NCBI GenBank assembly: GCA_017503375.1 | Contig: JAFVTF010000071.1 | Location: forward strand, 3,036 to 67,035 | Direction: 5' to 3' | Length of the DNA: 64,000 bases | From: Lentisphaeria bacterium | GTDB lineage: Bacteria > Verrucomicrobiota > Lentisphaeria > Victivallales > UBA1829 | In this document: one piece after another, positions 8,254-58,665 of the stretch | Layout of the letters: each line of letters starts with the position of its first letter | Position numbering within the stretch: position 1 is the stretch's first letter | Position numbers and translations under genes: made by a program | Notes under the pieces: generated by a model | The model's database searches: none | The model's input: only the letters and a program-made list of their open reading frames with translations | Told to the model about the DNA's origin: nothing

Positions 8254-8276
8254 TAATATATAAAGGAAAACAGAAA

Positions 8277-11200: not shown

Positions 11201-11663
11201 AGGAGTTATGCCCCGTCCCATCGTTTCAACCCGTTCTTCCAAACTGCCCCGTGCGGAGCAGGTCAAATCTCTGATCTCATGGTCCTTTGCCAACGGATTG
11301 ATGACACATTGTGACCAGGGCGTGCTGAGAGGACAGAAAGATTTCCAGGTCATGCGTGATGAAATCTTCAGTTTCGGTTTCGGCAGACCTCAGAACAAGA
11401 CCATTGCGTTCTATGACAAGGAAAAACAGCCCATCACCTGCAATGCCGCAAAAGTCCGCACAACTCAGGTGATCCGTCCGGATGGAAAAGCTCTTCTGAT
11501 GATCGGTAATACCGGAGATAAAGTCAAAGCCAAATTTGATCTTTCCGGTTTGAAGTATGGAAAATATAAAGTGACGGATGTCTTTACCGGAAAGGTTCTG
11601 ACAAGTACAGAAATTGAACTGCCCCGTCATGGTTATGCTCTTTGGAAGATCGAAAAGAACTGA
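8277..11663 (+). CDS. large secreted protein, paralog 2 of 3 (CBM9-like N-terminus plus uncharacterised region)
   Basis: 1128 aa, starting 23 nt after paralog 1. Signal-like start MQKTLFALLAATAVGAFG. It aligns end to end with paralogs 1 and 3, for example the shared YKAEWLPWDYPVDDA.NEYIA and GMNFDCFPLGGG. Confidence 0.85.
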   Translation: MQKTLFALLAATAVGAFGNTISNETLLRFAPMPKAPAIDGKIGYDEWKYASTTFGGISPKTKLMTRRQNDFRFGYDQKYVYFSITSEIPLPPQSLSGDDKVEFQLLPPGKTKPVVIAFDINRKGTIPAGTIIADSIGYATMNAEQGKCWIVEVAIPYSVLGVSGFKDGEKWGFQMIRHWSSQKETGYFHLPKKAGEMATFIPDTKAPIISFDGFGLLMYQATGNYNWTYRIENTQKQKIGVHSNSYRSGVNAAATLDINNPDLFGKEEKVAIGYSQTIEPGKTGLFQLHMMAQFPGKPRLLYSLLKGYNNVVYYKRTMFWDVLLSHRAAVYKDEKGLPYLNAGYYPSYGEKLRVAASFNKKLPIANVTITVRNSKGKVLHTFARSGFGRPLEDFEDQTVLKNLPLDDYTVTMESMDMNGKKYVHVRTFSIAKFPWQGLNLGKERIIIPPFKPLKVDKKKQEVHALLTGYKIGSGIWDAIYADGENILAAPIQFVLDGKPVPAGKTKLISAEKDRVVYETTVKNGKVKFILNQDYDYDGFCKLTTKVVPEGPVKISSFQLLIPMKAEYAKYYSALGFGNRTRGQGKPDTTIPAGQGELKLNINQRKGFILNYFWFGTAYKGFSWIIDTQKGFALDKKKYPHRMERKGNTVLFMQDIVNMPTIWDKPWEFTFGFSPTPVKPINKNYRSLSTWMYDYKPAKGSDKANMSIQQLPLGEYYDIQATPPGGESYYLDIVRNRGRFVPPAERKKMADEYIAKHKDWILKYAPLADFALLRKMFEDQRVWGDHYFLVYNDPAHYSYRWKEAEMYKAEWLPWDYPVDDALNEYIACKTPQYIDKMLYDMRRYARWGIEGMNFDCFPLGGGRNTVSRGAFREEPGPVPLIYNHNMLQIVPYGIVPCRDLFGWRELTKRTAHMLYTEGRLVHGVPWVELHSTDSAVPAVTAFCSTVITTECASHGDHYFDRFPESYVLSDLAGLQAGVMPRPIVSTRSSKLPRAEQVKSLISWSFANGLMTHCDQGVLRGQKDFQVMRDEIFSFGFGRPQNKTIAFYDKEKQPITCNAAKVRTTQVIRPDGKALLMIGNTGDKVKAKFDLSGLKYGKYKVTDVFTGKVLTSTEIELPRHGYALWKIEKN
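11352..11593 (+). repeat. near-identical 242-nt tract shared with 14928..15169 (inside paralogs 2 and 3)
   Basis: Aligning by hand gives 7 mismatches in 242 nt. A similarly protein-conserved segment (9361..9640 vs 12934..13213) gives 32 mismatches in 280 nt. Confidence 0.7.
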
Positions 11664-11737
11664 GGTTTTGTTTTATATACCGGAGTTTTTGACCGTTTAC
11701 TGAAAAAATGTAAAAAACTCCGGAAACAGAATTTATC

Positions 11738-11782
11738 ATATCTGTAAAAAAAATATATAATATTGCATTTTTTTACAGATAT
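11738..11782. repeat. perfect 15-bp AT-rich inverted repeat in the paralog 2/3 intergenic region
   Basis: The arm ATATCTGTAAAAAAA (11738..11752) pairs with TTTTTTTACAGATAT (11768..11782). The 15-nt loop contains TATATAAT. The repeat lies about 70 nt upstream of the 11850 start. Confidence 0.6.
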
Positions 11783-11849
11783 GGTTCTTGTTTTTCTCAG
11801 TATAATGGAGTATAATAACCGGGAATATTATTTTGAGGAGATTTCTCGA

Positions 11850-14800
11850 ATGAAAAAATGTATTTTTGCCGCATTTGCGGCAGTCATGAGCAGTGTCGTT
11901 GGAAACACACTTTCCGATGAGACATTGCTTCGTTTTGCACCGATGCCGAAAATCCCTGTAATTGATGGGAAAATTGGTTATGACGAATGGAAATATGCTT
12001 CCACTACGTTCGGCGGGATCTCTCCGAAAACAAAATTGATGACATTCCGTCAAAATGATTTCCGGTTCGGTTATGATGCAAAAAATGTTTATTTCTCCAT
12101 TACAAGTGAAATCCCTCTTGCGCCGCAGTCTCTTGATAAAGATGATTGTGTGGAGTTTCAGCTTTTGCCTCCGGGAAAAACAAAACCTTTTGTGATCCAA
12201 TATGATATTACCGGAAAAGGCCAAGTTCCTGCCGGGGCAAAATTGAAAAACTCTATCGGTTATGCAATCATGAATGCAGAGCAGGGGAAATGCTGGATTA
12301 CTGAAATTGCAATTCCTTATTCTGCTTTGGGCGTGACCGGATTCAAAGACGGGGAAAAATGGGGACTTCAGATGATCCGTCACTGGTCCAGTCAGAAGGA
12401 AACCGGATACTTCCATCTTCCGAAAAAAGCCGGGGAAATGGCAACCTTCATTCCTGACTCCCAGGCTCCGATTATCAGTTTTGACGGATTTGGACAGCTG
12501 ATGTATCAGAATGCCGGAAACTATATTTGGACCTACCGTGTTGAGAACACTCAGAAACACAAATTCGGAGTGATCTCAAAAAGTTACCGTGCAGGTGTGA
12601 GCGGTGCTGCAACCCTGGATATCAATAATCCGGACCTGCTTGGAACTTCTGTGAAAGCCGCAATCGGCGGAAATGCCATGGTCGAACCCGGGAAAACGCA
12701 TTTGTTCCAGCTGCACATGGTGGCCCAGTTTGCCGGAAAGCCCCGTCTGCTTTATTCTCATTTGAAAGGATACAACAATATTGATTATTATAAACGAGTC
12801 ATGTTCTGGGACACTTCCATTTCTCAGAGAGCTGCTGTTTATAAAGATGAGATCGGTTTGCCTTATCTCAACGCCGGTTATTATCCGAACTATGGAGAAT
12901 TGCTCCGTGTTTCTGCTTCATTCAACAAAAAACTGCCCATTGCAAATGTCACGATCACCGTGAGAAATTCCAAGGGGAAAGTCCTGCATACCTTTGCCCG
13001 TGCCGGTTTCGGACGTCCTGTGGAAGATTTTGAAGATCAGACTGTTCTGAAAAATCTCCCGGTTGATGATTATACCGTGACCATGGAATCCATGGATATG
13101 AAAGGGAAGAAATATTCTCATGTGAGAACGTTCTCCATTGCAAAGTTCCCGTGGCAGGGATTGAATCTCGGAAAGGAACGGATCATTATTCCGCCGTTCA
13201 AACCCTTGAAGCTGGATCAGAAAAAACAGGAAATCCATGCTCTCATGACCGGTTATAAGCTCGGCGGGAAGGGAATCTGGGATGCAGTTTATGCCGATGG
13301 CGAAAATATTCTTGCAGCTCCCATTCAGTTTGTTCTTGACGGAAAGCTGATTCCCGCCGGAAAACTGAAATTGATTGAATCTGCCAAAGACCGTATCATT
13401 TATGAATCTTCCGTTTCCTCCGGAAAAGTCAAATTCATTCTGAATCAGGAATATGATTATGACGGTTTCTGTAAACTGAATGTAAAAGTTATTCCTCAGG
13501 GACCTGTCAAAGTGAAATCATTTGAATTGCGTGTCCCCATGAAAGATGAATACGCAAAATATTATGCAACGATTCGCGGAAACCGTCCCCGCGCACAGGG
13601 AAAACCGGATACAACCATCCCGGCAGGGCAGGGCGTGCTTGATATCAAAGGTGCTTTGCAGGAAAAAGGACGGGTCATGAATTATTTCTGGTTCGGAACC
13701 ACTTACAAAGGTTTCAGCTGGATCATCGACACACAGAAAGGTTTCTCCATCGAAAAGACAAAATATCCTCACCGGATGGAACGCAAAGGAAAAACTGTCA
13801 CTTTCATTCAGGATATTGTGAATAAACAGACAATTTGGGATAAACCCTGGGAATTTACCTTCGGATTCTCTCCCACACCGGTGAAGCCCATAAACAAAAA
13901 TTACCGAACTCTTACCACATGGATGTATGATTATCCCAAAGCAAAAGGGTCTGATAAATGCAACATGCAAGTGGAACAGCTCCCGCTCGGAGATTATTAT
14001 GATGTTCAGGCAGTTCCCGATGGCGATGATTATTATTACAGACAGATCATTGCCAGCCGCGGAAAAGTTATTTCCGAAGCAGAACGGAATAAAATGGCGG
14101 ATGAGTACATCGCAAAGCATAAAGATTGGATTCTGAGAAATGCACCGCTGGCAGATTTCAGCCTGATCCGCAAGCTGTTCACCACCAAGCGTGCATGGGG
14201 CGATGATTATTTTCTGATGTATAACGATCCCGCATATTATTCCTACCGCTGGAAAGAAGCGGAAATGTACAAAGCAGAATGGCTTCCTTTTGATTATCCT
14301 GTGGATGATGCACTGAATGAATATGTTGCAAACAAAACACCGGAATATATTGATAAGATGCTTTATGAAATGCGCCGTTATGTCCGCTGGGGACTCGATG
14401 GCATGAACTTTGATTGTTTCCCGCTTGGCGGCGGAAGAAATATGATTTCCATGGGCGCATTCCGTGAAAAACCGGGCAGAGTACCTTTGATGTACAATCA
14501 CAATATGCTTCAGTTTGTGCCGGAAGGAATTATTTATGCCAGAAACTTCTTCGGCTGGCGCGAACTCACCAAACGCACAGCTCACATGCTTTACACCGAA
14601 GGGAAACTTATTCATGGAGTCCCATGGGTGGAACTTCACGCAACCGATGCCGCTGTTCCTGCAGTTGCCGCTTTCTGTTCTACTGTGATTACAATGGAAT
14701 GCGGTTCCATGGGCGGAAACTATTATGATCGCTTCCCCGACAGTTATGTGCTGAGTGATCTTGCCGGAACACAGGCTGGAGTTGTGCCCCGGACGATCGT

Positions 14801-15239
14801 TTCAACCCATTCTTCCAAACTTTCCCGCGCAGAACAGGTCAGATCTTTGATCAGCTGGTCCTTTGCCAACGGGATGCTGAATCATACAGATCAGGGCGTA
14901 TTGAAAAATCAGAAAGATTACCGCATTATGCGTGATGAAATCTTCAGTTTCGGTTTCGGCAGACCTCAGAACAAGACCATTGCGTTCTATGACAGGGAAA
15001 AACAGCCCATCACCTGCAATACCCCAAAAGTCCGCACAACTCAGGTGATTCGTCCGGATGGAAAAGCTCTTCTGATGATCGGTAATACCGGAGATAAAGT
15101 CAAAGCCAAATTTGATCTTTCCGGTTTGAAGTATGGCAAATATAAAGTGACGGATCTGTTTACCGGAAAAGAAATCGTAAAACCGGAAATTGAACTGCCC
15201 CGTCATGGCTATGCCCTTTGGAAAATAGAAAAACTTTAA
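11850..15239 (+). CDS. large secreted protein, paralog 3 of 3 (CBM9-like N-terminus plus uncharacterised region)
   Basis: I chose ATG 11850 (MKKCIFAAFAAVMSSVVG, with a GAGGAG RBS 9 nt upstream) over the track start 11763. That start would add 29 AT-rich non-homologous residues. The protein is very similar to paralog 2 throughout. Confidence 0.8.
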   Translation: MKKCIFAAFAAVMSSVVGNTLSDETLLRFAPMPKIPVIDGKIGYDEWKYASTTFGGISPKTKLMTFRQNDFRFGYDAKNVYFSITSEIPLAPQSLDKDDCVEFQLLPPGKTKPFVIQYDITGKGQVPAGAKLKNSIGYAIMNAEQGKCWITEIAIPYSALGVTGFKDGEKWGLQMIRHWSSQKETGYFHLPKKAGEMATFIPDSQAPIISFDGFGQLMYQNAGNYIWTYRVENTQKHKFGVISKSYRAGVSGAATLDINNPDLLGTSVKAAIGGNAMVEPGKTHLFQLHMVAQFAGKPRLLYSHLKGYNNIDYYKRVMFWDTSISQRAAVYKDEIGLPYLNAGYYPNYGELLRVSASFNKKLPIANVTITVRNSKGKVLHTFARAGFGRPVEDFEDQTVLKNLPVDDYTVTMESMDMKGKKYSHVRTFSIAKFPWQGLNLGKERIIIPPFKPLKLDQKKQEIHALMTGYKLGGKGIWDAVYADGENILAAPIQFVLDGKLIPAGKLKLIESAKDRIIYESSVSSGKVKFILNQEYDYDGFCKLNVKVIPQGPVKVKSFELRVPMKDEYAKYYATIRGNRPRAQGKPDTTIPAGQGVLDIKGALQEKGRVMNYFWFGTTYKGFSWIIDTQKGFSIEKTKYPHRMERKGKTVTFIQDIVNKQTIWDKPWEFTFGFSPTPVKPINKNYRTLTTWMYDYPKAKGSDKCNMQVEQLPLGDYYDVQAVPDGDDYYYRQIIASRGKVISEAERNKMADEYIAKHKDWILRNAPLADFSLIRKLFTTKRAWGDDYFLMYNDPAYYSYRWKEAEMYKAEWLPFDYPVDDALNEYVANKTPEYIDKMLYEMRRYVRWGLDGMNFDCFPLGGGRNMISMGAFREKPGRVPLMYNHNMLQFVPEGIIYARNFFGWRELTKRTAHMLYTEGKLIHGVPWVELHATDAAVPAVAAFCSTVITMECGSMGGNYYDRFPDSYVLSDLAGTQAGVVPRTIVSTHSSKLSRAEQVRSLISWSFANGMLNHTDQGVLKNQKDYRIMRDEIFSFGFGRPQNKTIAFYDREKQPITCNTPKVRTTQVIRPDGKALLMIGNTGDKVKAKFDLSGLKYGKYKVTDLFTGKEIVKPEIELPRHGYALWKIEKL
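14928..15169 (+). repeat. partner of the 11352..11593 near-identical tract
   Basis: See 11352..11593. Confidence 0.7.
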
Positions 15240-47019: not shown

Positions 47020-47508
47020 ATGATTTATTCCTGTCCAGTTTGTAAAACGAAACTTATTCTTCAGCCGGAACATTCCGGACAGGAAGTCCAGTGTCCGGAA
47101 TGTGAAAACACGTTCATCCCGGAAAAAGTGCCGCCTGTGGAAGTCTATTGTCCGGAATCTGCACCTGTCAGCTTTTTCAGAATTTTTCAGATCGTGATCT
47201 ATTCCGTTCTTTCTGTTCTGATCATCGGAATCGTCTGTCTGGTATTGTTCTTATCGGCAAAAAGCATGTTCCCGGAATATTTCAAAATGCAGGAACCCGG
47301 GATGAAATATTCTGAATTACAGAAAGCCCGGCAGACAGCTTTGGAGGAAGAAGATCGGAAACAGCGAAATGCTGTAAATTACGAACGGAGAATCCAGCTG
47401 CAGCGATTTGCTGAAAATGAGGAAGAACGTTCGATCAGAGAGAAAAATCAGGAAGCTGAAAAGGCTTTTCTGAGGGAATTTGACCGTATGCAGAAGGAGA
47501 AAAAATAG
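47020..47508 (+). CDS. zinc-ribbon membrane protein with a charged C-terminal helix
   Basis: It has the motif CPVCKTKL...CPECENTF (CxxC-x17-CxxC), a TM segment FRIFQIVIYSVLSVLIIGIVCLVLFL, and then a Glu/Lys/Arg-rich tail. Confidence 0.6.
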   Translation: MIYSCPVCKTKLILQPEHSGQEVQCPECENTFIPEKVPPVEVYCPESAPVSFFRIFQIVIYSVLSVLIIGIVCLVLFLSAKSMFPEYFKMQEPGMKYSELQKARQTALEEEDRKQRNAVNYERRIQLQRFAENEEERSIREKNQEAEKAFLREFDRMQKEKK

Positions 47509-49220
47509 TGATAAGAAAAATTTTTTTCGCAGCCATTTTTATTATCGGAAGTTTGACAGTTGATGTGTATGGAGACAATATGAAAAAAATAAAAAACACC
47601 ATTGAAAAACAACAATTCAGCGGAGTTGTTCTTCCTGCAGAATGGAAGTTGTTCCGTTCGGACTTTTTCACCAGTCAGGATGCCGCCGCAGCACGTTTTG
47701 AGGATGATTTCCTGATTCCGTTTCAGGGAAAGGATAAAATCAAGCCGGTTATCCTGAAACCTGCCAGGATTCTTGATCTGACACTCGGAAAAAAACATGC
47801 CAGAGAAAACCGTGCAATCCTTGCCGGGGTGATTTATTCCGAAAAACCGCAGACGATTTATGTCGGTTTCGGGGCAGACTGGTGGATTGACGGTTTCTGC
47901 AACGGTGCTTACATCGGCGGAACTGATGTCGGCGGAAATGACAACTGGCCGCCATCAGCACAGGACCGTGTTTTCCCGCTGAATTTGAGAGCCGGCCGGA
48001 ATGATCTGACATTTTTTGTTACTCCGGGAAGCGGTTCCTGGGGTGTTGCTGTTGAGTTCTTTGCAAAATGCGATGATCCCGATATTCCGCCGCGCCGTTT
48101 GCCGGAACCGGGAATCGCATTCCAGCCTTATATTACAAATCTTGCTGAGGATTCTGTAACGATCACATATCTTCTCAATGGAAGACAGCCCCTTCAGCTG
48201 GAGTACCGTCAGGCAGGAACAAAAGAATGGAGCACAATGAGCAAACTGAGAGGCGGACAGATCATTGATGAAAAACCGATCTTGCAATTCAAATTGACCG
48301 GATTGAAACCGGATACGACTTATGAATACAGAGCATTGCGGAGAGTTCCTCCTTATTATTTTGGGGGATCCCGTGAAAAAATCCATACCTTCAGAACATG
48401 GTCCGGAAAGAGCCAGAGCTATACATTCTTCCTCATGGGCGATACTCAGGATACCAGCAAAAAGAAAAATCTTGCCCGGATGAGAATCGTACAGAAAGCG
48501 TTTCCCGAAGTGAAAAAATGCAGTTTTTTTGTTCATGTGGGAGATTTTCATGGAGTGATCAATCACTTCCGCAACGATGTATTTGACAGTGTCCTGAAAA
48601 CGATTCCCAGCGAAATGTATATCGTTGCTGCCAGAGGAAATCATGAATTTGAAGGAGCGGAAGCTCAGCAGTGGGTCGATCATTTCAGCTACAGCACCGG
48701 AAAGAGTTACGGTATGTTCCGTGCCGGAGAAGTCTGCTATATTGTGCTTGATACCGGACATCATCTGGGAAAATATTCCAGAAATTCCCACAATGTACAT
48801 ATGGGATTGAATTACCTTGATACCCTTTTGGAAGAGCAGACCGCATGGCTGAAAGAAGCTGTAAAAAGTCCGGAATTTCAAACAGCCAAGTTCCGGATCG
48901 CCATCGCTCACGTAGCACCGCATGGTCAGTCCGACAGTTTCAAGCACATGGTTCCCCGGACTCAGAAAATGGTTCAGGATGTATTCAAAAATTCCAAATA
49001 TCCTCTTGATCTCTGGCTTGCGGGACATACTCATGTTTACAAGCGGATACCGGCTCATCCGGAATGGAACTTCCCAGTGATCGTTGTCGGCGGCGGTGGC
49101 CCCAATGCCGAAAAACGCCCCGGTCTGGCATTGTTGTTCGATGTTCAGCCCGGAAAGATCACGATGAAAGCTTTGAATGCAGATGGTTCCGTTTGCGATA
49201 CCTTTGAGCTGAAAAAGTAA
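47508..49220 (+). CDS. calcineurin-like metallophosphoesterase (purple-acid-phosphatase-like) with an N-terminal accessory domain
   Basis: The metallophosphoesterase blocks FFLMGDTQD, VHVGDF, ARGNHE, IAIAHVAP and LAGHTHVY are present. The N-terminus is signal-like (IRKIFFAAIFIIGSL). The GTG start overlaps the upstream TAG by 1 nt. Confidence 0.75.
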   Translation: MIRKIFFAAIFIIGSLTVDVYGDNMKKIKNTIEKQQFSGVVLPAEWKLFRSDFFTSQDAAAARFEDDFLIPFQGKDKIKPVILKPARILDLTLGKKHARENRAILAGVIYSEKPQTIYVGFGADWWIDGFCNGAYIGGTDVGGNDNWPPSAQDRVFPLNLRAGRNDLTFFVTPGSGSWGVAVEFFAKCDDPDIPPRRLPEPGIAFQPYITNLAEDSVTITYLLNGRQPLQLEYRQAGTKEWSTMSKLRGGQIIDEKPILQFKLTGLKPDTTYEYRALRRVPPYYFGGSREKIHTFRTWSGKSQSYTFFLMGDTQDTSKKKNLARMRIVQKAFPEVKKCSFFVHVGDFHGVINHFRNDVFDSVLKTIPSEMYIVAARGNHEFEGAEAQQWVDHFSYSTGKSYGMFRAGEVCYIVLDTGHHLGKYSRNSHNVHMGLNYLDTLLEEQTAWLKEAVKSPEFQTAKFRIAIAHVAPHGQSDSFKHMVPRTQKMVQDVFKNSKYPLDLWLAGHTHVYKRIPAHPEWNFPVIVVGGGGPNAEKRPGLALLFDVQPGKITMKALNADGSVCDTFELKK

Positions 49221-49348: not shown

Positions 49349-49936
49349 TTATTTCAAAATGATTTTTCCGTTTCCAGCTTCCTGAAGGATTTTTTCCAGA
49401 AGAGGAAATTGTTCCTCCGGCAATGTTCCGGTGATTGTGATGTCATCGGAAAAATCCTCTCCGGTACGCTCAAATCCAAGCGGAGCCATTCTGTTCAGAA
49501 CTGTATTGTAAAGCGGATATGGAATTGTGATGCTGACATTCCGCATCGGTATCAGTTCTTTGGTTTCAGCGAGTTCAATTACAGCTTTTGCGGCATCGCT
49601 GTACGCATGAACCAAACCTCCCGTGCCGAGTTTTGTTCCACCGAAATAACGGGCAATTGTGATAAGGGTATTTGTCAAACCGCTGCCTTTCAGTACCGCC
49701 AGAACCGGACGTCCTGCGGTTCCGGAAGGTTCTCCATCATCAGAACAGCCGCAGATATTCTGCTGGGGGCCAAGTGTAAAGGCATAGACGATATGACCTC
49801 CATTATCGTAAGTTTCCTTTTTATGTTTCCACAAAGCCTTTGCTTCTTCGGGGGTATGAACGGTATGAAGTTCAGCAACAAACCGGGAATTTTTGACTTT
49901 TGTTTCCGCTTTCGGTTCATTTTTCAGGATAAGCAT
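49349..49936 (-). CDS. YigZ / IMPACT-family protein
   Basis: The sequence shows KNSRFVAELHTVHTPEEAKALW, GGHIVYAF, SDDGEPSGTAGRPVL and IARYFGGTKLGTGGLVHAY. Confidence 0.8.
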   Translation of the reverse strand: MLILKNEPKAETKVKNSRFVAELHTVHTPEEAKALWKHKKETYDNGGHIVYAFTLGPQQNICGCSDDGEPSGTAGRPVLAVLKGSGLTNTLITIARYFGGTKLGTGGLVHAYSDAAKAVIELAETKELIPMRNVSITIPYPLYNTVLNRMAPLGFERTGEDFSDDITITGTLPEEQFPLLEKILQEAGNGKIILK

Positions 49937-49947
49937 GGCAACACCTC

Positions 49948-50781
49948 TTATGTCCGGAAATTACCGGGTGTTTTTCCATAGTGCTGCCGGAATATTTTTA
50001 TAAAATAACTGCTGTCTTTGAATCCGCATCGGTATGCGATTTCTGCAATCTGCAATGCAGTGTGATGCAGCAGAGAAACTGCATTTTCCAGCCGGATTGT
50101 GGTCAGATATGTGGAAAAACTCACCCCGAATTCCCGTTGGAACAATCTGCTCAGATAAGAGGGACTGATTCCCAGTTTCACGGACGTTTGTTCCAGCGTG
50201 ATTTCCGAAGCATAATTTTGCGTGATAAAAAATTTCGCCTGCTGAATCAGTTTGGAATGTCCCAGATTTGTATTTATCTGTTCTTTTGCCTTCGCCGCAT
50301 GAACGATCGAACAGTAAAACAGCAGCAGAAGTGCATGCAGCTGAACCTGTGCATTCGGAGTACTGATCAGCTTTTTTGACCATAGTTCATAAAGAAAATC
50401 CAGCCGTCTGCGAACTTCTGAGCGTGTTGCAAAATCCAGCCGGTGAAGTTCCACATTGTTGACGGTATTGAAAAAGAGATCAGCCTCCTGCCAGGTGAAA
50501 GAGATCATCATGATCCGCAATCCGCGCAGCGGTTCAAACACATCTCTGTGAAGAACGTGACGCGGAATGAGCAGAAAATCCCCCGCTACAGCCGGATACG
50601 CCAATCCTTCTCCGATTTCCAACGTGCATTTTCCATCAAGAACATACAAAAGTTCATTATTCGCGGATATATGTTTTTCCCGCCAGACATTTTCGTAGTC
50701 TATGACACGAAATGAACTCAGTTCCGGTTGTATGGTCCAGAATTTTTCTTTTTTTTCTCCGTTCACTGATCGCCTTTCCAT
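49948..50781 (-). CDS. AraC-family transcriptional regulator
   Basis: The cupin part is LLYVLDGKCTLEIGE...GDFLLIPRHVLHRD. The HTH part is IAEIAYRCGFKDSSYFIKIFRQHYGKTPGNFR. I prefer ATG 50781 (MERRSV...), because the 32 residues added by the track start 50877 are AT-rich and look non-coding. Confidence 0.75.
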   Translation of the reverse strand: MERRSVNGEKKEKFWTIQPELSSFRVIDYENVWREKHISANNELLYVLDGKCTLEIGEGLAYPAVAGDFLLIPRHVLHRDVFEPLRGLRIMMISFTWQEADLFFNTVNNVELHRLDFATRSEVRRRLDFLYELWSKKLISTPNAQVQLHALLLLFYCSIVHAAKAKEQINTNLGHSKLIQQAKFFITQNYASEITLEQTSVKLGISPSYLSRLFQREFGVSFSTYLTTIRLENAVSLLHHTALQIAEIAYRCGFKDSSYFIKIFRQHYGKTPGNFRT

Positions 50782-51003
50782 GATTGAGTATTCTTCTGGT
50801 AATGTAATCTCATTATGAATTTTTGCAAATGGATTTTTTATAAAACGTTTTTTCTGAAAAAAAACAGTAAAGGTCATAAAAGTTATATAATTGTCAAAAA
50901 AATGTTATTGTTTGAATGTTGATTTTCATAAAACAGCAGATATATTAAACGCAGAGAATGAATTAACCCTTTCATAAAAACCAAAAAGAAAAGGAATTTC
51001 AAA

Positions 51004-52314
51004 ATGTCCGAACAACTCGCAATTTATGGTGGAACCCCGTCCGTTGATGTCAGCAAAGTCGCTCCCTGGCCGCCTGTCAACGAAATTGATGAAAAACTTG
51101 TTCTTGAAACTCTTCGCGGAAGAGTTCAGACCCGTGGTGAACAGAACCTTGCATTTGAAAAAGAATTCCGTGAATGGAATGGGAATGATTTTGCCCTTTT
51201 CACAAACTCCGGAACAGCAGCTCTGCACATGTGTCTCGTCGGCTGCGGAATCGGGGCAGGGGACCATGTTCTGGTGACAGCATACAGCTGGAGTTCCAGT
51301 GCAACCTGTATTCTTCACCATGATGCTATTCCGATTTTTGTTGATATTGATCCCGAAACCTTCCTGATGGATCCGGATAAGATCGAAGCAGCAATCACCC
51401 CGCGTACCAAAGCGATCATCGTTGTTCAGCTCCATGGTCTCTGCAACGATATGGACAAGATCAATGCGATTGCAAAGAAACACAATCTGAAAGTCATCGA
51501 AGATGCATGTCAGGCACACGGTGCAATGTACAAAGGCAAAAAAGCCGGTACTCTCGGTGACTGTGCAGCATTCAGTTTCAATCAGAACAAGTGCTTGAGC
51601 TGCGGCGAAGGCGGTATGTTTGTAACCAACAGCCAGGAAATTTTTGATCAGGCTGCAAAACTCTGGAGTTTCGGAGAAACTGCACGTCCGGAACAGCGCC
51701 GTGACTATCACGCTTATGCACTCGGCTGGATGTACCGCAACAATGAAATCACTGCAGCTTACGGACGCGCTCAGCTTTCCAAATATGATTTCTATTTCAA
51801 CACACTTCGCAACAATGGCGAATATCTGCTGAAGAATCTTGCCGGAACCCCGAATCTGATGCTTCCCTATGAACCGGAATGGGCAACTCATAACTGGTAT
51901 AACTTCAACCTCCGTGTTGATTTCGCCAAGATGGGCGTGACGGATCCTGCTGAACAGGTCAAATTCCGTGATGCAGTTGCGGCGGCTCTTTGCGATGAAG
52001 GTATCGTTGCAAGTGTCTGGCAGCGGTTCATTCTTCCTGAAATGACAGTGTTCGCTGCCAAGAATGCTTACGGTATGGGTTATCCCTGGAGCATTCCCGG
52101 CGCAGATGAAGGTGTTGATTACAGTCTTGAAAAATTCCCGAATGCTCTGGAATACAGCCGGAAACATATTTCCATCGTTCACACTCTGCGCGCTCCCAAC
52201 GGGCTTGACATTGCTGAACAGGTTCGTCAGGGTATCGCAAAAGTCTTCAACAACCTTGACAAGATTGATCCTGAAAAGATTCAGGCAATTGTGGAAGCCC
52301 GGAGAAAAAAATAA
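51004..52314 (+). CDS. DegT/DnrJ/EryC1/StrS-family PLP-dependent aminotransferase
   Basis: FEKEFREWNGNDFALFTNSGTAALHM, IIVVQLHGLCNDMDKI, and the PLP-lysine region AFSFNQNKCLSCGEGGM are present. Confidence 0.8.
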   Translation: MSEQLAIYGGTPSVDVSKVAPWPPVNEIDEKLVLETLRGRVQTRGEQNLAFEKEFREWNGNDFALFTNSGTAALHMCLVGCGIGAGDHVLVTAYSWSSSATCILHHDAIPIFVDIDPETFLMDPDKIEAAITPRTKAIIVVQLHGLCNDMDKINAIAKKHNLKVIEDACQAHGAMYKGKKAGTLGDCAAFSFNQNKCLSCGEGGMFVTNSQEIFDQAAKLWSFGETARPEQRRDYHAYALGWMYRNNEITAAYGRAQLSKYDFYFNTLRNNGEYLLKNLAGTPNLMLPYEPEWATHNWYNFNLRVDFAKMGVTDPAEQVKFRDAVAAALCDEGIVASVWQRFILPEMTVFAAKNAYGMGYPWSIPGADEGVDYSLEKFPNALEYSRKHISIVHTLRAPNGLDIAEQVRQGIAKVFNNLDKIDPEKIQAIVEARRKK

Positions 52315-53975
52315 TGAAAAAATCAGTTGCATTGTTTTTAACAATTGCAGCAGCTTGTTTTTTAAGTGCGTGTAAATCATTTGATGCCTGTGACAAGCAG
52401 GCATCAGATGCCGGACTTAAAATAGGCTGGGGCAAGCGTTCGATTGCTCAAAAGGGGCCTGTTCCCATTACTGGTCAGTTCCATTTAAGGGTTTCCCAAG
52501 GGGAGTTCACTCCGGTGATTGCAAGTGCTCTTGCGATATCCAATGAAAAAGATTCTGTGATCTTTGTAACTTTGGATGTTGTTTCTTTTTCTGCTGTTGC
52601 TCTGAAAGAAATTCAGGAAACCCTGAAAAAAGAAGCTCCGGAGATTCCTGTGGAAAAAATCATTATCAATTCCACTCATACTCATGCTGGACCTTCTGCT
52701 GCCGGTCATTTCAAAGGATTCCCCATTGATGTCAAAGTCATTCCGTCTGAAGATGTACGGAAGTTTCAGGTTCGTCAGGTTTCTGATGCGATTAAAGACG
52801 CATGGAAAAACCGGGCTTCCGGTTCCATTTCCTATGGTTACGGTTTTGCAACCACCGGACACAGCCGCCGTGCTGTTTACCTGAAAGATGTCGGCAGAAT
52901 TTTCGGCGGAACTTCCGGAATGGCAATGAACGGTAAAGCTGTTATGTACGGCAGAACGAACTATGAATTGTTTGACGGTTATGAAGCCGGAACCGATGCG
53001 TTCATCAACTTGCTTTATACTTTTGATAAAAAAGGAAAACTGACAGGTGCAATCATTAATGTACCGTGTCCATCCCAGACAAACGAAAGTGTCTGGATGC
53101 TTCATGCAAGTTTCTGGCATAATGTCCGTGAAAAACTTACAGCCAAGTATGGGAATATCGGTGTAATCGGTCAATCCGCAGCAGCCGGGGATCTTTCTCC
53201 GCGTCAGCTTCACTATAACAAAGCGGAACTCCGCCGTTACAAGCTGAAGTATAAGGATAAGATCGAAGCGTATTGCAAAAATCCGATGAAGAATCCTTTT
53301 GCCCGGAACTGGACGAAAGAAGAAGTCCGCGCCCAGGCAGAATCTGATGCCGTGGAACTGATGCGGGCGGAAGATATTGCAAACCGTATCGTGGCTGCCT
53401 TTGATGAAGTGCTGAGCTGGGCAGGTCAGGAAAAGTTCAGTAATCCTGAATTGAAACACGAAATCAAGACAGTCAAGCTTTCCCGCAGATTGTTCCCGAA
53501 AGTTCTTGTTGATGAAGAAAAACAGAAACATGCCGAAGTCATGAAACTGAAATTCAAGACTGACGGAAATGAATGGGAACGTCTTGTCCACAACAGCCGT
53601 CTCAACAGCCGCAGAAGAAGAATCGGCGGAATTCTCACCCGCTACGAAAATCAGGCAAAGAATCCGACTCTTACTACAGATATCCATGTGGTCAGACTTG
53701 GAAATATTGCGTTTGCGACCAACCGTTTTGAACTGTTCCTGGATTATCAGCACCGGATTCAGGCGCGCAGTCCTTTTGAACAGACTTTTATCGTTCAGCT
53801 CGTGACCGATGTCAATGGTGTCGGAAGTTATCTCGCCACTGAAAAAGGTGTTGCCAATAAAGGTTACAGTGCCACACCTTACTGCAACCAGGTTTCTCCC
53901 AAAGGCGGACAGGAACTTGTAGAAGAAACTTTGAAGGCTCTTGATGGTATAAAACCTCAAAAAATAAAGGAGTAA
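52314..53975 (+). CDS. neutral/alkaline-ceramidase-N-terminal-domain-like hydrolase, lipoprotein form (tandem copy 1)
   Basis: The lipoprotein-like signal MKKSVALFLTIAAAC/FLSAC offers two possible lipoboxes. LKIGWGKRSI...PITGQF...VIFVTLDVVSF...IINSTHTHAGP matches the ceramidase N-domain pattern. Its ATG overlaps the DegT stop by 1 nt. Confidence 0.65.
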   Translation: MKKSVALFLTIAAACFLSACKSFDACDKQASDAGLKIGWGKRSIAQKGPVPITGQFHLRVSQGEFTPVIASALAISNEKDSVIFVTLDVVSFSAVALKEIQETLKKEAPEIPVEKIIINSTHTHAGPSAAGHFKGFPIDVKVIPSEDVRKFQVRQVSDAIKDAWKNRASGSISYGYGFATTGHSRRAVYLKDVGRIFGGTSGMAMNGKAVMYGRTNYELFDGYEAGTDAFINLLYTFDKKGKLTGAIINVPCPSQTNESVWMLHASFWHNVREKLTAKYGNIGVIGQSAAAGDLSPRQLHYNKAELRRYKLKYKDKIEAYCKNPMKNPFARNWTKEEVRAQAESDAVELMRAEDIANRIVAAFDEVLSWAGQEKFSNPELKHEIKTVKLSRRLFPKVLVDEEKQKHAEVMKLKFKTDGNEWERLVHNSRLNSRRRRIGGILTRYENQAKNPTLTTDIHVVRLGNIAFATNRFELFLDYQHRIQARSPFEQTFIVQLVTDVNGVGSYLATEKGVANKGYSATPYCNQVSPKGGQELVEETLKALDGIKPQKIKE

Positions 53976-53978
53976 AAA

Positions 53979-55532
53979 ATGGCAAATCAATTGAAAATCG
54001 GATGGGGAAAACGTTCCATCGCACCGGATGCAGCCACGCCCATTCCCGGACAGTTCAATATGCGGGTATCTCTGGGCAGTTTCACGCCGGTGCTTGCAAA
54101 CGCTCTTGTGCTGGAAAATGGCGATGATGCAGTGATCTTTGTTTCCTGCGATGCTGTTTCAATTTCTGTTGAAATTCTCAAGAAAGCGCAGGCTTTTCTG
54201 GCAGAAGATATTCCCGGATTCCCCGTGGACAAGATCATTCTGAACTCCACTCATACCCATGCCGGACCGGGTGACAGAGATATGTCTCCGTATCCCCACA
54301 GCATAGATGTTCTCGGTCCGGAAGATGTAAAAAATTTCATCGGACGTCAGATTGCTGATGCGGTCAAAGAGGCATGGGAAAAACGTGCCCCCGGTGCAAT
54401 TTCCTACGGCTACGGATTTGCCGTTACCGGACACAGCCGCCGGGTAATTTACAGCGATGACTACGGTCTGCGCGGAAATGGAAAGCCCGGTCTTGCCATC
54501 AATGGTCATGGCGTAATGTACGGCAATACCAATGATGACAAGTTTGAAAGCTATGAAGCCGGAACCGATGCTTTCATCAACCTGCTTTATACCTTCGATG
54601 CCAACGGAAAACTTTCCGGAGCGATCGTCAACGTGCCGTGTCCCTCCCAAACAAACGAACATGCGTGGGTGTTCCATGCAAGTTTCTGGCACAATGTCCG
54701 GGAAAAACTTACTGCCAAGTATGGTGATATCGGAGTTGTCGGACAGGCTGCGGCTGCAGGGGACCTCTCTCCCCGTCAGCTTCATTACAGAGAAGCTGAA
54801 GCCCGCCGTTACCGTTTGAAGTATAAAGATAAGATCGATGCTTATATGAAGAACCCGATGTCTTTGCCCGGTGCTGAAAACTGGACCCCGGAACAGCGTC
54901 GTGTACAGAGTGAATATGAAGCGATTGAACAAATGCGTGCTGAAGATATTTCCAGCCGTATTGTTGCAGCATTCGATGAAGTGCTGAGTTGGGCTGATCA
55001 GGAAAAATTCTCTGCACCCGTTCTCAAGCATGAAGTCCGCACTGCTGAACTTTCACGCCGCATGTTCCCGAAAGAAATGATGGAAGAGGAAAAACGGAAT
55101 CTCGAAACCTTCATGGCTGAAGAGTATCTTACAGAGGGCGATAAGTGGGATGTCCTTTATAACAACTCTATTCTTCACAGTAAACGGTTCCGCTGCGGCG
55201 GTGTTGTTTCCCGTTATGAAATCCAGGAAAAACAGCCGACGATCACTTCTGATATCCATGTCGTCCGGATCGGAGATATTGCGTTCGCAACCAACCGGTT
55301 TGAACTTTACATGGATTATCAGCACAGGATTCAGGCACGCAGTCCCTTTGAACAGACCTTTATCGTTCAGCTTGTGACCGGACCCAATGGTATCGGCAGT
55401 TATCTGGCAACGGAACGCGGGGAAAAGAATAAAGGGTACAGCGCATCTCCGTACTGCAATCAGGTTTCCCCGAAAGGCGGGCAGGAACTGGTGGAAGAAA
55501 CGTTGAAAATCCTTAACGAGGTAAAAGAATAA
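53979..55532 (+). CDS. neutral/alkaline-ceramidase-N-terminal-domain-like hydrolase, no signal peptide (tandem copy 2)
   Basis: It starts MANQLKIGWGKRSIAPDAATPIPGQF with no hydrophobic leader. ILNSTHTHAGP is present. It is collinear with copy 1 (FINLLYTFD, NVPCPSQTNE, HASFWHNVREKLTAKYG). Confidence 0.65.
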   Translation: MANQLKIGWGKRSIAPDAATPIPGQFNMRVSLGSFTPVLANALVLENGDDAVIFVSCDAVSISVEILKKAQAFLAEDIPGFPVDKIILNSTHTHAGPGDRDMSPYPHSIDVLGPEDVKNFIGRQIADAVKEAWEKRAPGAISYGYGFAVTGHSRRVIYSDDYGLRGNGKPGLAINGHGVMYGNTNDDKFESYEAGTDAFINLLYTFDANGKLSGAIVNVPCPSQTNEHAWVFHASFWHNVREKLTAKYGDIGVVGQAAAAGDLSPRQLHYREAEARRYRLKYKDKIDAYMKNPMSLPGAENWTPEQRRVQSEYEAIEQMRAEDISSRIVAAFDEVLSWADQEKFSAPVLKHEVRTAELSRRMFPKEMMEEEKRNLETFMAEEYLTEGDKWDVLYNNSILHSKRFRCGGVVSRYEIQEKQPTITSDIHVVRIGDIAFATNRFELYMDYQHRIQARSPFEQTFIVQLVTGPNGIGSYLATERGEKNKGYSASPYCNQVSPKGGQELVEETLKILNEVKE

Positions 55533-56320
55533 TGAAATTTTCCATGATGACTTATACTATGATGCGTCAGCCGGGATATACTCCCGCTGATTGTGTCAGA
55601 GTTGCAGCTGAATTGAAAATGGATGGAATCGACTGGGTTACGACCTATGGCGAAGACCCCGAACTTTTGAAGAAAATGAGTGATGATGCCGGTTTGGTTG
55701 TCGCTGCTCATACGTTCTTTGTTCCCGGCAATAATCTTGCGGAAAAAATCAGCAATGCAGAAAAATCTCTTGATGATGCCTGTGTTTTAGGCGCACCTCT
55801 GGTAATGATTCCGCCCTGTCCGTTCGCAGATGTCCCGGAACCGGAAGAAAACCGCAAACGCTGGATTGAGATCCTGGTCGAAGTCGCTCCGCTTGCAGAA
55901 AAACGGAATCTGATTCTGACCGTGGAAAACTTCCCCGGAGCAGCAAGCTGTTTCGTGACCGCCGATGATTTCTACGAAGCAAAAAAAATCATTCCGTCTC
56001 TCAAATTGACCTTTGACAACGGGAATGCCGCAAGCGGTGAAGATCAGATCGAAAGTTTGAAACGCTGTTTCAAAGATATCGTTCACGTTCACTTCAAAGA
56101 TTGGGATATTTCCACTGAAGCAAAAGAAGGATGGCGGCAAATGCGCGACGGCCGTTATTACACTCCTGCTTTGATCGGTGAAGGGGATATCGACAGCAAA
56201 GCAACTCTTTCTGCCCTGGAAGAACTGGGATATCAAGGTTTCATCAATATTGAGTATGAAAACAACAAATATCCTGCAGATGAAGGAATTCGCAGAGTCC
56301 TGGAATATTTGAGAGGATAA
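55532..56320 (+). CDS. sugar phosphate isomerase/epimerase (xylose-isomerase-like TIM barrel)
   Basis: The family-typical pattern is LILTVENFPG, IVHVHFKDW, GEGDID and GYQGFINIEYE. Its ATG overlaps the upstream stop by 1 nt. Confidence 0.75.
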   Translation: MKFSMMTYTMMRQPGYTPADCVRVAAELKMDGIDWVTTYGEDPELLKKMSDDAGLVVAAHTFFVPGNNLAEKISNAEKSLDDACVLGAPLVMIPPCPFADVPEPEENRKRWIEILVEVAPLAEKRNLILTVENFPGAASCFVTADDFYEAKKIIPSLKLTFDNGNAASGEDQIESLKRCFKDIVHVHFKDWDISTEAKEGWRQMRDGRYYTPALIGEGDIDSKATLSALEELGYQGFINIEYENNKYPADEGIRRVLEYLRG

Positions 56321-56347
56321 TTTCCGGATTTCAAAAATCTGCCTCAA

Positions 56348-56384
56348 GGGACTGTTATCAGCACAGTCCCTTTTTTGTTTTTTT
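56348..56384 (+). terminator. rho-independent terminator of the 51004..56320 operon
   Basis: Stem GGGACTGT (56348..56355) / ACAGTCCC (56363..56370), followed by TTTTTTGTTTTTTT. Confidence 0.75.
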
Positions 56385-56388
56385 ATAC

Positions 56389-56429
56389 AAAAAAAAACTG
56401 CTGCAAATTTTTCGTTGCAGCAGTTTTTT
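56389..56429. terminator. bidirectional terminator serving rho on the minus strand
   Basis: A9, then stem CTGCTGCAA (56398..56406) / TTGCAGCAG (56415..56423), then T6. On the minus strand the hairpin lies 18 nt after the rho stop and is followed by U9. Confidence 0.7.
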
Positions 56430-56441
56430 GTATCAGAATTC

Positions 56442-58580
56442 TTACTGTTGAAGTGTCAGAAGAAATTCGATGTTTGTCTTGATCTTCTTGAGTTTTCCAA
56501 CAATGAGTTCCATTGCTTCCACCGGAGGCACTCCGTTCATGGCTTTCCGGAGAGTCCAAATCCGCTGTAATTCGTCCGGATGCAGCAGCAATTCTTCTTT
56601 TCTGGTACCGGAACTTTCAATATCAATTGCAGGATAAACACGCTTGTCAACGAGACGTCTGTCAAGATGCAGTTCCATGTTTCCGGTACCTTTGAATTCT
56701 TCAAAGATAACTTCATCCATACGGCTTCCGGTATCGATCAGAGCTGTTGCAAGAATGGTCAGACTTCCATGCCCCTCAATATTTCTTGCGGCACCGAAGA
56801 AACGTTTCGGTTTATGGAGTGCATTGGAATCCACACCGCCGGAGAGAATTTTCCCGCTGTGGGGAGCCAGTGTGTTATAGGCTCTTGCCAGACGGGTGAT
56901 GGAGTCCAGAAGAATCACAACATCTTTTCCGTATTCCACCATGCGTTTTGCTTTTTCGATGACCATTTCAGCAACCTGAACGTGGCGTTCGGGCGGTTCG
57001 TCAAAAGTTGAACTGACAACTTCGGCATCGACGACCCGTTTCATATCGGTAACTTCTTCGGGGCGTTCGTCAATAAGAAGAACGATCAAATGAACTTCCG
57101 GATTATTCTTGCGGATGGCATTTGCCATCTTCTGCATGAGAACCGTTTTCCCGGTTCTGGGAGGAGCAACGATCAAACCGCGTTGTCCTTTTCCGATGGG
57201 AGTGACCAAATCTACGACACGCATGGAAATTTCATCGGGAGCGTGTTCCATCATGAGCCGTTCAGTGGGGAAATACGGTGTCAAGCTGGCAAACGGAATG
57301 ATATTGCGTTTCTTTTCCGGCGGTTCGTTGTTGATCGTATCAATTTTCATGATGGCAAAGAACCGTTCTTTTTCTCTGGGAGGACGGATCTGACCGCGGA
57401 CAAAGTCGCCTGTTTTCAGAGAGAATTTACGGATTTGAGCCTGATGGACATAAATATCTTCAGAGGACGGCATATAGCTGTAAGCTGCGGAACGGAGAAA
57501 TCCGTAGCCATCGGGAAGAATTTCCAGAAAACCGCTGCCGTAAACGGCTCCGCTGCGTTCGGTTGTTACCCGCAGGATTTCAAAGACAAGACGGGATTTT
57601 TCCAATGCGCCCAGTCCTTCGATTCCCAGATTGCGCGCCATATCACTCAATTCCATCATGGATTTTTCCTGGAGTTCAGTGATATCAATATCCGGAGCTT
57701 TTTCAAAGACCTGCGGCTGTTCGGGATCGACCGGCACCGTTCCATCAGCGGGAACCATCTGCGGAGGCATTTGCGGCTGCATCTGACGGGGCTGCATGTT
57801 GTTGTAATGCTGCATCATCCGGTCAGGATTCTGGTTCATCTGACGGTAACGGTTATTGTTTCCTCCATTATTGAAACGCCCGTTATTGTTATTATTGCGG
57901 TTATTATTCCGGTTGTTGTTATTGTTCCGGTTATTCTGGAAGTGACCGTTCCGGTTGTTCTGATTCTGCCGCTGCGGGGGTCTTTCGGAATATTCTCTGA
58001 AAAGGATGGCCGCAGAATCATCAATCATTTGAGGTTTCTGCTGCTGAGCTGCCGGCGCCGCCGGGGCAGGGGAATCATCAAAATCATTTTCGGCATCATC
58101 GGAGTGGTAGACGGAGATTTGTTCCTGCTGCTGTTGCTTTTCCGCTTCGTAGCGCAGAATTTCCTGTTGTTCCTGAGCTTCTTTCAGCATGATCTGCTGT
58201 TCTCTCTGTTCGAGAATTTCAGCCCGTTCTTCGCTGTTGAGATTGGCTGAGAGTTCGGGAAGTCTGTCGGGAATTGTCTGGCGTCTGTGTGCCGGAGCCG
58301 TTGCCGGGACGGAATCTTCAACAGAAACGACCAGCTGATCCGGGCGGATATCTTCCGGGATTGATATATCATTGATATCTTCAGCGGGAGCGGTTCTCTT
58401 ACGTCTCTGAGGGACTGTTTTTTCTTCTTCAGCGGGAAGAGCCTGCACATCAGCTGCTGGTGTTCTGCGTGGTCTGCCGCGTTTAGGTTTTTCGGGGGCG
58501 GCTGGCATCGCTGTTTCAGCAGGCGCAGCGTTTTCTTCGGGGATGATGTTCTGGTTGAGTTCGTTTTCTTCGTTAGCCAT
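56442..58580 (-). CDS. rho: transcription termination factor Rho with a ~300-aa N-terminal extension
   Basis: The canonical Rho core runs from [23 protein letters not shown]. It includes [14 protein letters not shown] (the CSD-like RNA-binding domain), Walker [13 protein letters not shown] and the C-terminal [18 protein letters not shown]. The start is set at MANEENE (ATG 58580, GGAGAG RBS) rather than the track start 58598. Confidence 0.9.
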
Positions 58581-58665
58581 TCGTCTCTCCATTTTCATTT
58601 AGAAAAGGGGGGTGATACTGTTCCGTTGTGTCATAAAGAAAATAATGGAATTTTCTGAAAGGATG

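Follow-up and report, generated by a model that had tools for sequence, protein, structure and literature searches.

In Pseudomonas aeruginosa, the neutral ceramidase CerN (PaCD) is placed under an AraC-type sphingosine sensor, SphR, and the zinc ion in the structure of PaCD (2ZWS) is reportedly held by His97, His204, Glu411, and Tyr448. In amino-sugar catabolism of the NagA/NagB (AgaA/AgaS) type, phosphorylated sugars are deacetylated by an enzyme of the amidohydrolase superfamily and are then processed by a single deaminase-isomerase. In the present study, we analyzed a window of 64,000 nucleotides (nt) from a Lentisphaeria bacterium (assembly GCA_017503375.1, contig JAFVTF010000071.1, positions 3,036-67,035 of the forward strand), in which positions 49,948-56,320 carry an operon encoding a DegT-type aminotransferase, two ceramidase-like paralogs, and a TIM-barrel protein, together with a divergent gene for an AraC-family regulator (Table 1; positions below are those of the window).

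The two central genes of this operon share the catalytic-domain fold of neutral ceramidase, and the whole is a real, conserved, and uncharacterized module around a variant of a known enzyme fold rather than a new kind of system. We consider it, with a probability of approximately 0.45, to be a substrate-inducible catabolic operon of a gut-dwelling, Victivallaceae-like member of the Lentisphaeria, by which a glycan-derived amino sugar, amino-polyol, or aminocyclitol with an N-substituent is degraded, a reading that draws on the conserved linkage of the genes, their carbohydrate-type neighborhood, and the retained catalytic residues of the paralogs. A preliminary description of the locus, made from the sequence alone, had not recognized the combination as a described pathway; in agreement with this, neither a described pathway with this combination of genes nor a paper on this ceramidase-fold family was found in literature searches aimed at either.

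Fold, active site, and localization of the paralogs

Paralogs 1 and 2 are identical at 336 of 513 residues (65%). The AlphaFold2 model of paralog 2, which was built on 38 homologs (pLDDT 88.9, pTM 0.91), had significant matches in the PDB to the neutral ceramidase entries 2ZWS, 2ZXC, and 4WGK only (Foldseek E-values of 5e-23 to 2e-20, TM-score of approximately 0.6). Alignment of the paralog family by hhalign to five canonical full-length ceramidases, including P. aeruginosa CerN, which were taken from plasmid records by tblastn (alignment A2), gave a probability of 98.3% over 377 columns.

The preliminary description had seen in both proteins the N-domain pattern of neutral/alkaline ceramidases. 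The relationship stands for the catalytic fold, as detected by Foldseek and hhalign, but not for the Pfam score, the C-terminal domain, or the part that corresponds to the lipid pocket. The scores of the paralogs against Ceramidase_alk (PF04734) were 29.4 and 28.0 bits versus a gathering threshold of 32.1, with the match limited in both to approximately 110 residues (model positions ~37-150 of 509), and neither protein matched an NCBIfam model. The C-terminal immunoglobulin-like domain of ceramidases is absent, with no match to PF17048 in either paralog; in both proteins, approximately 25 residues follow the final core motif, and paralog 2 comprises 517 amino acids (aa) versus approximately 625-675 aa in canonical ceramidases. 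A helical insert of approximately 150 aa (residues 268-415 of paralog 2), which is rich in Arg, Lys, and Glu and not hydrophobic, occupies the segment equivalent to the ceramidase lipid pocket. This insert is the least conserved region of the family, and most of the distant matches break into two stretches around it. The paralogs retain the fold and the greater part of the catalytic machinery of a ceramidase, but lack three features that define the family, and are not ceramidases in the strict sense. Among other members of the family, lipoprotein variants of 760 aa were noted (L010:7677-9962, L013:7703-9985, L022, and L027; the prefix L denotes our loci), the C-terminal extension of which (~210 aa) matches no Pfam family.

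Regarding the active site, residues of PaCD are numbered here according to the mature protein (the precursor offset is 24 residues), and all those cited are invariant in alignment A2. His97 and His99 correspond by hhalign to H92 and H94 of paralog 2 (NSTHTHAGP), and Glu411 to E442 (NRFEL); Tyr448 and Tyr460, the counterparts of which lie just past the end of the hhalign alignment, were assigned by eye to Y475 (GSYLAT) and Y487 (KGYSA). Of the 121 family members at 82 loci, at least 120 keep these five residues, as do at least 128 of the 129 aligned distant sequences, which consisted of 128 cluster representatives at 33-60% identity and paralog 2 itself. Three zinc ligands (H92, E442, and Y475) and the catalytic H94 and Y487 are thus retained across more than 240 sequences, and R154, E193, and Q224 are conserved to the same degree. 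The motifs NSTHTHAGP, GHSRR, NVPCPSQT, NRFEL, GSYLAT, and KGYSAT are all present in paralog 1. R154 and R155 (GHSRR) fall in an hhalign insertion and are the probable counterpart of the Arg in the N-R-S motif of ceramidases (Arg160).

The region of the remaining zinc ligand differs. The ceramidase segment FPVH-STS reads NVPC-PSQT in the paralogs, as part of a family-specific [A/P]-C-P-S-Q motif, and the position of His204 is taken by Pro222 when aligned through short intermediate paralogs that read NFACHPT and share the preceding Cys. This residue, Cys221, is kept in 118 of 121 close members and in 109 of 129 distant members, and it may take over as a metal ligand, though not an indispensable one. 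Extra short ceramidase-like paralogs of 419-458 aa occur in other Victivallales modules (L063:11578-16503, L067, and L071:4622-5998). These score above the Pfam threshold and still have the His ligand, within A-C-H-P-T or S-H-P-T, and are evolutionary intermediates between the canonical ceramidases and the C-P-S-Q family.

The preliminary description had also placed the two copies on opposite sides of the membrane. The N-terminus of paralog 1, MKKSVALFLTIAAACFLSAC, has an MKK n-region, a hydrophobic core (12-aa hydropathy of 2.57), and a lipobox, LSAC, at residues 17-20 (signal MKKSVALFLTIAAACFLSA|C20), and the lipoprotein-type signal that had been claimed for this copy was accordingly recovered by a pattern test for the lipobox [LVI][ASTVI][GAS]C. 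The reading frame of paralog 2 cannot begin any earlier, its ATG being preceded at a distance of 3 nt by the stop codon of paralog 1, and no hydrophobic N-terminus was found in paralog 2, the DegT protein, or the TIM barrel in a hydropathy check. A pair of exported and leaderless copies was the most common arrangement among 12 non-redundant multi-copy modules, seven of which were mixed, with four being all leaderless and one all exported, and single-copy modules of both kinds, exported and leaderless, occur. Judging from these predicted signals, the arrangement on both sides of the membrane appears to be common among close relatives, but not obligatory.

The operon, its partner enzymes, and the regulator

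The layout given in the preliminary description, namely, five open reading frames (ORFs) with 1-nt overlaps, a 3-nt gap, and a divergent AraC gene, was borne out in full by the ORF list and by direct reading of the junctions. The overlaps have the form TAATG (DegT/paralog 1 at 52314 and paralog 2/TIM barrel at 55532), while the two paralog genes are separated by a spacer of 3 nt (AAA, 53976-53978), with the Shine-Dalgarno sequence of paralog 2, AAGGAG, being located within the 3' end of the paralog 1 gene. Based on this spacing and on the conservation of gene order in other genomes, the genes are likely to be co-transcribed. The strong terminator that had been noticed after the TIM-barrel gene is also present: its stem, AAGGGACTGT-loop-ACAGTCCCTT, has 10 bp with five G-C pairs (56346-56372) and is followed by TTTTTTGTTTTTTT. 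A second, convergent hairpin terminator (56429-56392) serves the downstream rho gene, and the operon and rho are thus separated by back-to-back hairpins (56346-56429) that constitute a convergent terminator pair. Horizontal acquisition of the cluster was considered and rejected, the G+C content of 0.44-0.49 being the same as in the rest of the window.

Table 1. Features of the operon region, with positions in the window.
Feature	Position	Strand	Basis or remark
AraC-family regulator, cupin/AraC_binding N-domain and two helix-turn-helix (HTH) motifs	49948-50877	-	divergent from operon
Divergent intergenic/promoter region, A+T-rich	50878-51003		sequence read
DegT/DnrJ/EryC1/StrS pyridoxal phosphate (PLP) aminotransferase, 436 aa, cytoplasmic	51004-52314	+	Pfam
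Ceramidase-fold metallohydrolase paralog 1, 553 aa, lipoprotein	52314-53975	+	motifs, 65% identity to paralog 2
Ceramidase-fold metallohydrolase paralog 2, 517 aa, leaderless, cytoplasmic	53979-55532	+	AlphaFold2 model, Foldseek, hhalign
Xylose-isomerase-like TIM barrel (AP_endonuc_2), 262 aa, cytoplasmic	55532-56320	+	Pfam
Intrinsic terminator closing the operon	56346-56385	+	10-bp stem, 7-nt loop, T-run

The DegT protein scored 289 bits against the Pfam family DegT_DnrJ_EryC1 (threshold 19.8), but reached no equivalog cut-off among the NCBIfam models (PseC, LegC, ArnB, WecE, etc.), the best being PseC with 190 versus 423.5 bits. The Schiff-base Lys196 is retained (FSFNQNK) and matches the corresponding lysines of 8GYH and 8Y96 in the alignment, which indicates a transaminase and not a His-type dehydratase. 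These two entries are the closest solved relatives (8GYH, E = 6e-77 with ~45% identity over 365 aa; 8Y96, Ser5, E = 5e-58), and the three proteins have in common a C-terminal extension that carries GYPW or GYPF. 8Y96 is cited in a paper on the structures of the Serratia aminotransferases Ser4 and Ser5, in which the activity of Ser5 was shown on N2-acetyl-lysine and -ornithine alone (PMC11726168). 8GYH has homologs of 83-93% identity in many actinomycetes, and the single example for which we inspected the context, P0366 of Streptomyces roseoviridis, shares its cluster with genes for LysW, LysX/Y/Z-like proteins, a split transketolase, and a sulfotransferase, which is an amino-group-carrier protein (AmCP) route to 2,6-diamino-5,7-dihydroxyheptanoate. 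The "sugar aminotransferase-like" enzymes Fic25 and Vzb9 aminate a carrier-bound, acyclic 5,7-dihydroxy-6-oxo acid (PMC11726168), and we infer from the genomic context, not from the entry itself, that 8GYH may be Fic25 or Vzb9. Since the nearest solved relatives belong, by similarity, with aminotransferases for dihydroxy-oxo substrates, the DegT subfamily does not appear to be limited to nucleoside diphosphate (NDP)-sugars, and, by analogy, this branch may handle a ketone between two hydroxylated carbons.

The TIM barrel matched AP_endonuc_2 with 107.5 bits (threshold 31.1) at residues 23-261 of 262. It reached none of the curated equivalog cut-offs of NCBIfam, with weak matches below the cut-off to IolE, L-ribulose-5-phosphate 3-epimerase, hydroxypyruvate isomerase, and IolO. 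Among solved structures, Art22 (8Z1I; E = 7e-30) is the closest, and MJ1311, IolI, and IolE come next at a distance; by analogy, the nearest relatives all appear to perform enolate chemistry at a position beside the carbonyl of a sugar or cyclitol. Art22 probably corresponds to the sugar isomerase/epimerase-like protein encoded in the aurantinin cluster, the product of which bears a 3'-keto sugar and in which the matching 279-aa gene is numbered art23 (PMC8302727 and its supplement).

The regulator has the C-terminal double HTH and the N-terminal ligand-binding cupin of the AraC/XylS family (HTH_18, 89.5 bits; HTH_AraC, 77.3 bits; AraC_binding, 25.5 bits against a threshold of 21.1), and it, too, stayed below every curated equivalog cut-off of NCBIfam. 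Orthologs with 43-70% identity adjoin the module at L004, L007, L018, L019, L020, and L032, which is in line with the dedicated AraC-type regulator that had been proposed for this tight operon. Compared with six orthologs, the true start of the protein is probably Met33 (ATG at 50781), and the intergenic region would then reach 50782 and span approximately 222 nt instead of 126 nt. A generic promoter scan gave no more matches than shuffled sequence; this region contained a single weak sigma-70-like match at 50919-50946 (+), and an operator was not identified in it. A gene of the YigZ/IMPACT family (49349-49936, -) lies directly downstream of the AraC gene and is syntenic at L004, L008, and L017. 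The gene at 47508-49220 (+), upstream of the operon, encodes a protein of 570 aa that looks secreted and belongs to the calcineurin-like phosphoesterases, with the N-domain of purple acid phosphatases; a Metallophos gene also follows a ceramidase-fold gene at L054, and this resemblance may be a coincidence. On the other side of the operon, the rho gene (56442-58598, -) encodes a protein of 718 aa with an N-terminal extension of approximately 300 aa ahead of the Rho_N and RNA-binding domains, in which residues ~150-300 form a low-complexity, prion-like-looking insertion (35% Asn+Gln).

Distribution, gene neighborhood, and proposed function

Paralog 2 was found in an identical form on metagenome contigs that have the same downstream order (TIM barrel, rho, CoaE, and NUDIX) and the end of which cuts off the upstream paralog; these contigs thus stem from an organism of the same kind. 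Among named genomes, the nearest relatives are Lentisphaeria/Victivallaceae assemblies obtained from ruminants (caecum, colon, and rumen). In a scan of one genome per species, the family was present at 351 loci, and an exhaustive search gave 322 clusters (50% identity) at E<=1e-30 and 956 at E<=1e-10. In the scan by species, Lentisphaeria/Victivallales, among them Victivallis vadensis and Oligosphaera ethanolica, supplied most of the top matches, and some others came from Clostridia and Verrucomicrobia assemblies. A DegT gene, one to three amidase copies, and a TIM-barrel gene were adjacent at approximately 35 of the 82 loci, including V. vadensis (carrier of the module at L059 and L070) and a metagenome-assembled genome (MAG) of Firmicutes, often with the orthologous AraC gene upstream, and the conservation across genomes for which the preliminary description had called is thus evident in many species. 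In the Firmicutes MAG (UBA5473), the module forms part of an eleven-gene cluster (L055:323-13213) in the order TIM barrel, DegT, PHP, TIM barrel, GFO/IDH/MocA, two Amidohydro_2, two ceramidase-fold genes, DegT, and TIM barrel; its presence in this larger keto/amino-sugar cluster outside Lentisphaeria suggests horizontal spread.

The neighborhood was scanned over 181 neighboring genes at 54 non-redundant loci, with homology-supported ORFs being chosen first. Recurrent neighbors were AP_endonuc_2 barrels (8/92 in one set), GFO/IDH/MocA oxidoreductases, Amidohydro_2 and PHP proteins, major facilitator superfamily (MFS) transporters, GH3, fucosidase, fucose/arabinose-isomerase-like proteins, M20 peptidases, and SGSH-type sulfatases, whereas a thiolase was the sole fatty-acid-type match and no other lipid gene was found among the 181 neighbors. 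An SGSH_C-type sulfatase sits in the L063 module among the short ceramidase-like paralogs; with sulfatases accounting for 2 of 89 neighbors, this was given little weight as evidence for N-unmasking. The giant GH123-like genes were also considered as a functional link, one adjoining a family member at L033 and another lying 5 kb off at L004, and were set aside because this family is simply abundant, with three tandem copies 35 kb away in the window itself. These three ORFs (4852-15239, +; 1133, 1128, and 1158 aa) each have a weak GH123_N match. Considering the GH123-like, GH127, GH2, and rhamnosidase-like genes in the window, the organism is likely to be a glycan degrader.

In the scheme that we propose for the operon, two metal-dependent amidohydrolases of the ceramidase fold would strip the N-acyl group and expose a free amine, the lipoprotein copy acting outside the cytoplasmic membrane on a polymer or oligomer and the cytoplasmic copy on the imported form. 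Following the chemistry of their families, the DegT PLP enzyme would pass the amine to a 2-oxo acid and leave a keto sugar or hydroxy-ketone, and the TIM barrel would form a metal-stabilized enolate beside the new carbonyl and isomerize, epimerize, or dehydrate the compound to an intermediate of central metabolism. The substrate or an intermediate may be sensed by the cupin-containing AraC regulator. The order of deacylation, transamination, and isomerization of an N-acyl amino sugar, which the preliminary description had suggested, would fit the carbohydrate-type neighbors; no support was obtained for the glycolipid-like substrate that it had offered as an alternative.

Several points weigh against a catabolic amidase operon of this kind. 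The fourth zinc ligand, His204, is lost in both paralogs and family-wide, and Cys221 is Ser, Ala, or Thr in approximately 15% of distant members; given the loss of His204, the metal site, and hence the amidase chemistry, is not assured. The loss of metal-binding or catalytic residues in both copies had been named beforehand as an objection to the proposal, and it applies to His204, but not to the equivalents of His97, His99, Glu411, Tyr448, and Tyr460, which are invariant. The operon encodes no transporter, kinase, or glycosidase, and the entry and exit of the pathway are therefore undefined. Many family members have no DegT or TIM-barrel gene nearby, and the role of the family is accordingly broader than the module. 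Furthermore, DegT enzymes are mostly biosynthetic, and amino-sugar catabolism through NagA/NagB needs neither a transaminase nor a ceramidase-fold amidase.

The family-wide replacement of His204 by Cys-Pro-Ser-Gln, the family-specific invariant Gln224, and the many invariant Arg residues may also be taken as signs of a changed chemistry, in which the ceramidase-fold proteins cleave a non-carboxamide bond (sulfamate, carbamate, ester, or glycosylamine) or serve in binding or as a scaffold, with the DegT and TIM-barrel proteins still processing a keto or amino sugar. The L063 module, in which the sulfatase is accompanied by two canonical-like, His-keeping short paralogs, suggests parallel N-unmasking activities and is in line with this explanation. 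We regard it as unlikely because retained metallo-hydrolase chemistry is the simplest interpretation of the invariance of three metal ligands together with H94 and Y487, and a non-catalytic protein would not preserve such residues. The salvage of sphingolipids from gut Bacteroidota or the host appears to be quite improbable. According to this explanation, the paralogs are true ceramidases, and the sphingoid base is transaminated by DegT to a 1,3-dihydroxy-2-ketone, which the TIM barrel isomerizes. Neutral ceramidases are indeed the only fold relatives of the paralogs, the lipoprotein position suits a membrane-lipid substrate, and CerN is under the control of an AraC-type sphingosine sensor. 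However, cultured relatives of the organism are saccharolytic anaerobes, carbohydrate genes recur among the approximately 180 neighbors versus one thiolase, and a leaderless cytoplasmic copy is difficult to reconcile with a membrane lipid. Chemically, the explanation is attractive in that the closest solved relatives of DegT make or handle the 2-amino-1,3-diol/1,3-dihydroxy-2-ketone motif (PMC11726168) and a sphingoid base is a 2-amino-1,3-diol, whereas the sub-threshold Pfam match to ~110 of 509 model positions, the missing C-terminal domain, the loss of one zinc ligand, and the charged helical insert in place of the lipid-pocket segment all argue against a true ceramidase.

Neutral ceramidases are able to join a fatty acid and an amine without coenzyme A. 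A biosynthetic module has also been weighed, in which a keto sugar receives its amino group from DegT and the ceramidase-fold enzymes work in the reverse direction to yield an N-acyl amino sugar for the modification of a surface glycolipid or lipoprotein. The location of one paralog at the membrane surface would suit this role, as would the typically biosynthetic function of DegT enzymes and the amination direction in which the nearest solved relatives of the present one work (PMC11726168). We nevertheless consider it very improbable: no glycosyltransferase, nucleotidyl-transferase, acyl carrier, or flippase is encoded in or near the operon, the neighbors are degradative enzymes, and a divergent cupin-AraC regulator and a copy number of one to three are hallmarks of catabolic loci. 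Returning to the catabolic operon, a further-reaching version of it is possible, though doubtful, namely, that the short ceramidase-fold proteins with the [A/P]-C-P-S-Q motif represent a new N-deacylase family for amino sugars or amino-polyols with a remodeled metal site and, together with DegT and the isomerase, form an undescribed non-phosphorylative route by which gut and rumen Lentisphaeria harvest N-acylated amino sugars from glycans of the host or of microbes, with the first step occurring on both sides of the membrane.

Significance and comparison with described systems

Lentisphaeria/Victivallales are common in animal guts and anaerobic digesters, where they degrade glycans, but little is understood about them. 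The ceramidase-fold family, which reaches three or more copies at a single locus, is large, but has no curated model and no characterized member. If the catabolic proposal is true, it would provide a new amidase family, a transaminase-based alternative to the amino-sugar logic of NagA/NagB, and a function for many pairs of DegT and xylose-isomerase-like genes in the Planctomycetes-Verrucomicrobia-Chlamydiae (PVC) superphylum. That one zinc ligand was lost while the rest of the site was conserved is also of interest for the evolution of the ceramidase fold. The hypothesis is testable because a cultured carrier of the module exists in V. vadensis.

Among described enzymes, the neutral ceramidases (CerN/PaCD, 2ZWS and 2ZXC; human ASAH2, 4WGK) are similar to the paralogs in the catalytic fold, the H-x-H motif with a zinc ligand and the catalytic His, the Glu and Tyr zinc ligands, and the second Tyr, and the canonical enzymes are secreted, as paralog 1 is predicted to be exported. 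In contrast, the paralogs are only approximately 16% identical to them, fall below the Pfam threshold, have no PF17048 domain, have replaced His204, and carry the charged insert of approximately 150 aa, and the operon includes a leaderless cytoplasmic copy. The genomic context of the present family is carbohydrate genes rather than sphingomyelinase or phospholipase C genes. The association of SphR with CerN resembles the operon in that an AraC-type regulator is tied to a ceramidase-fold hydrolase; however, the genes of P. aeruginosa are non-adjacent, the hydrolase is a canonical ceramidase, and neither DegT nor the TIM barrel is involved.

Regarding the partner enzymes, Fic25, Vzb9, and Ser5 of the AmCP pathway share with the DegT protein the fold, the C-terminal extension, the catalytic Lys, and substrates other than nucleotide sugars. 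The AmCP pathway is biosynthetic, Fic25 has been shown to use an amino acid attached to a carrier protein of the LysW type, and the Streptomyces clusters contain a transketolase and LysX/Y/Z, whereas none of this machinery is present in the operon. Art22, IolE, IolI, and the FrlC-type epimerases have the AP_endonuc_2 fold of the TIM barrel, which also matches inosose dehydratase/isomerase and keto-sugar epimerases more weakly, but it differs from them in being below every curated equivalog threshold. The logic of the proposed scheme is also that of NagA/NagB (AgaA/AgaS), in which the N-acyl group is removed, the amine is removed, and a ketose/aldose isomer stands at the end. The enzymes of the operon are unrelated to the deacetylase and deaminase-isomerase of that route, no kinase or phosphotransferase system (PTS) is linked to them, and deamination would be achieved by transamination.

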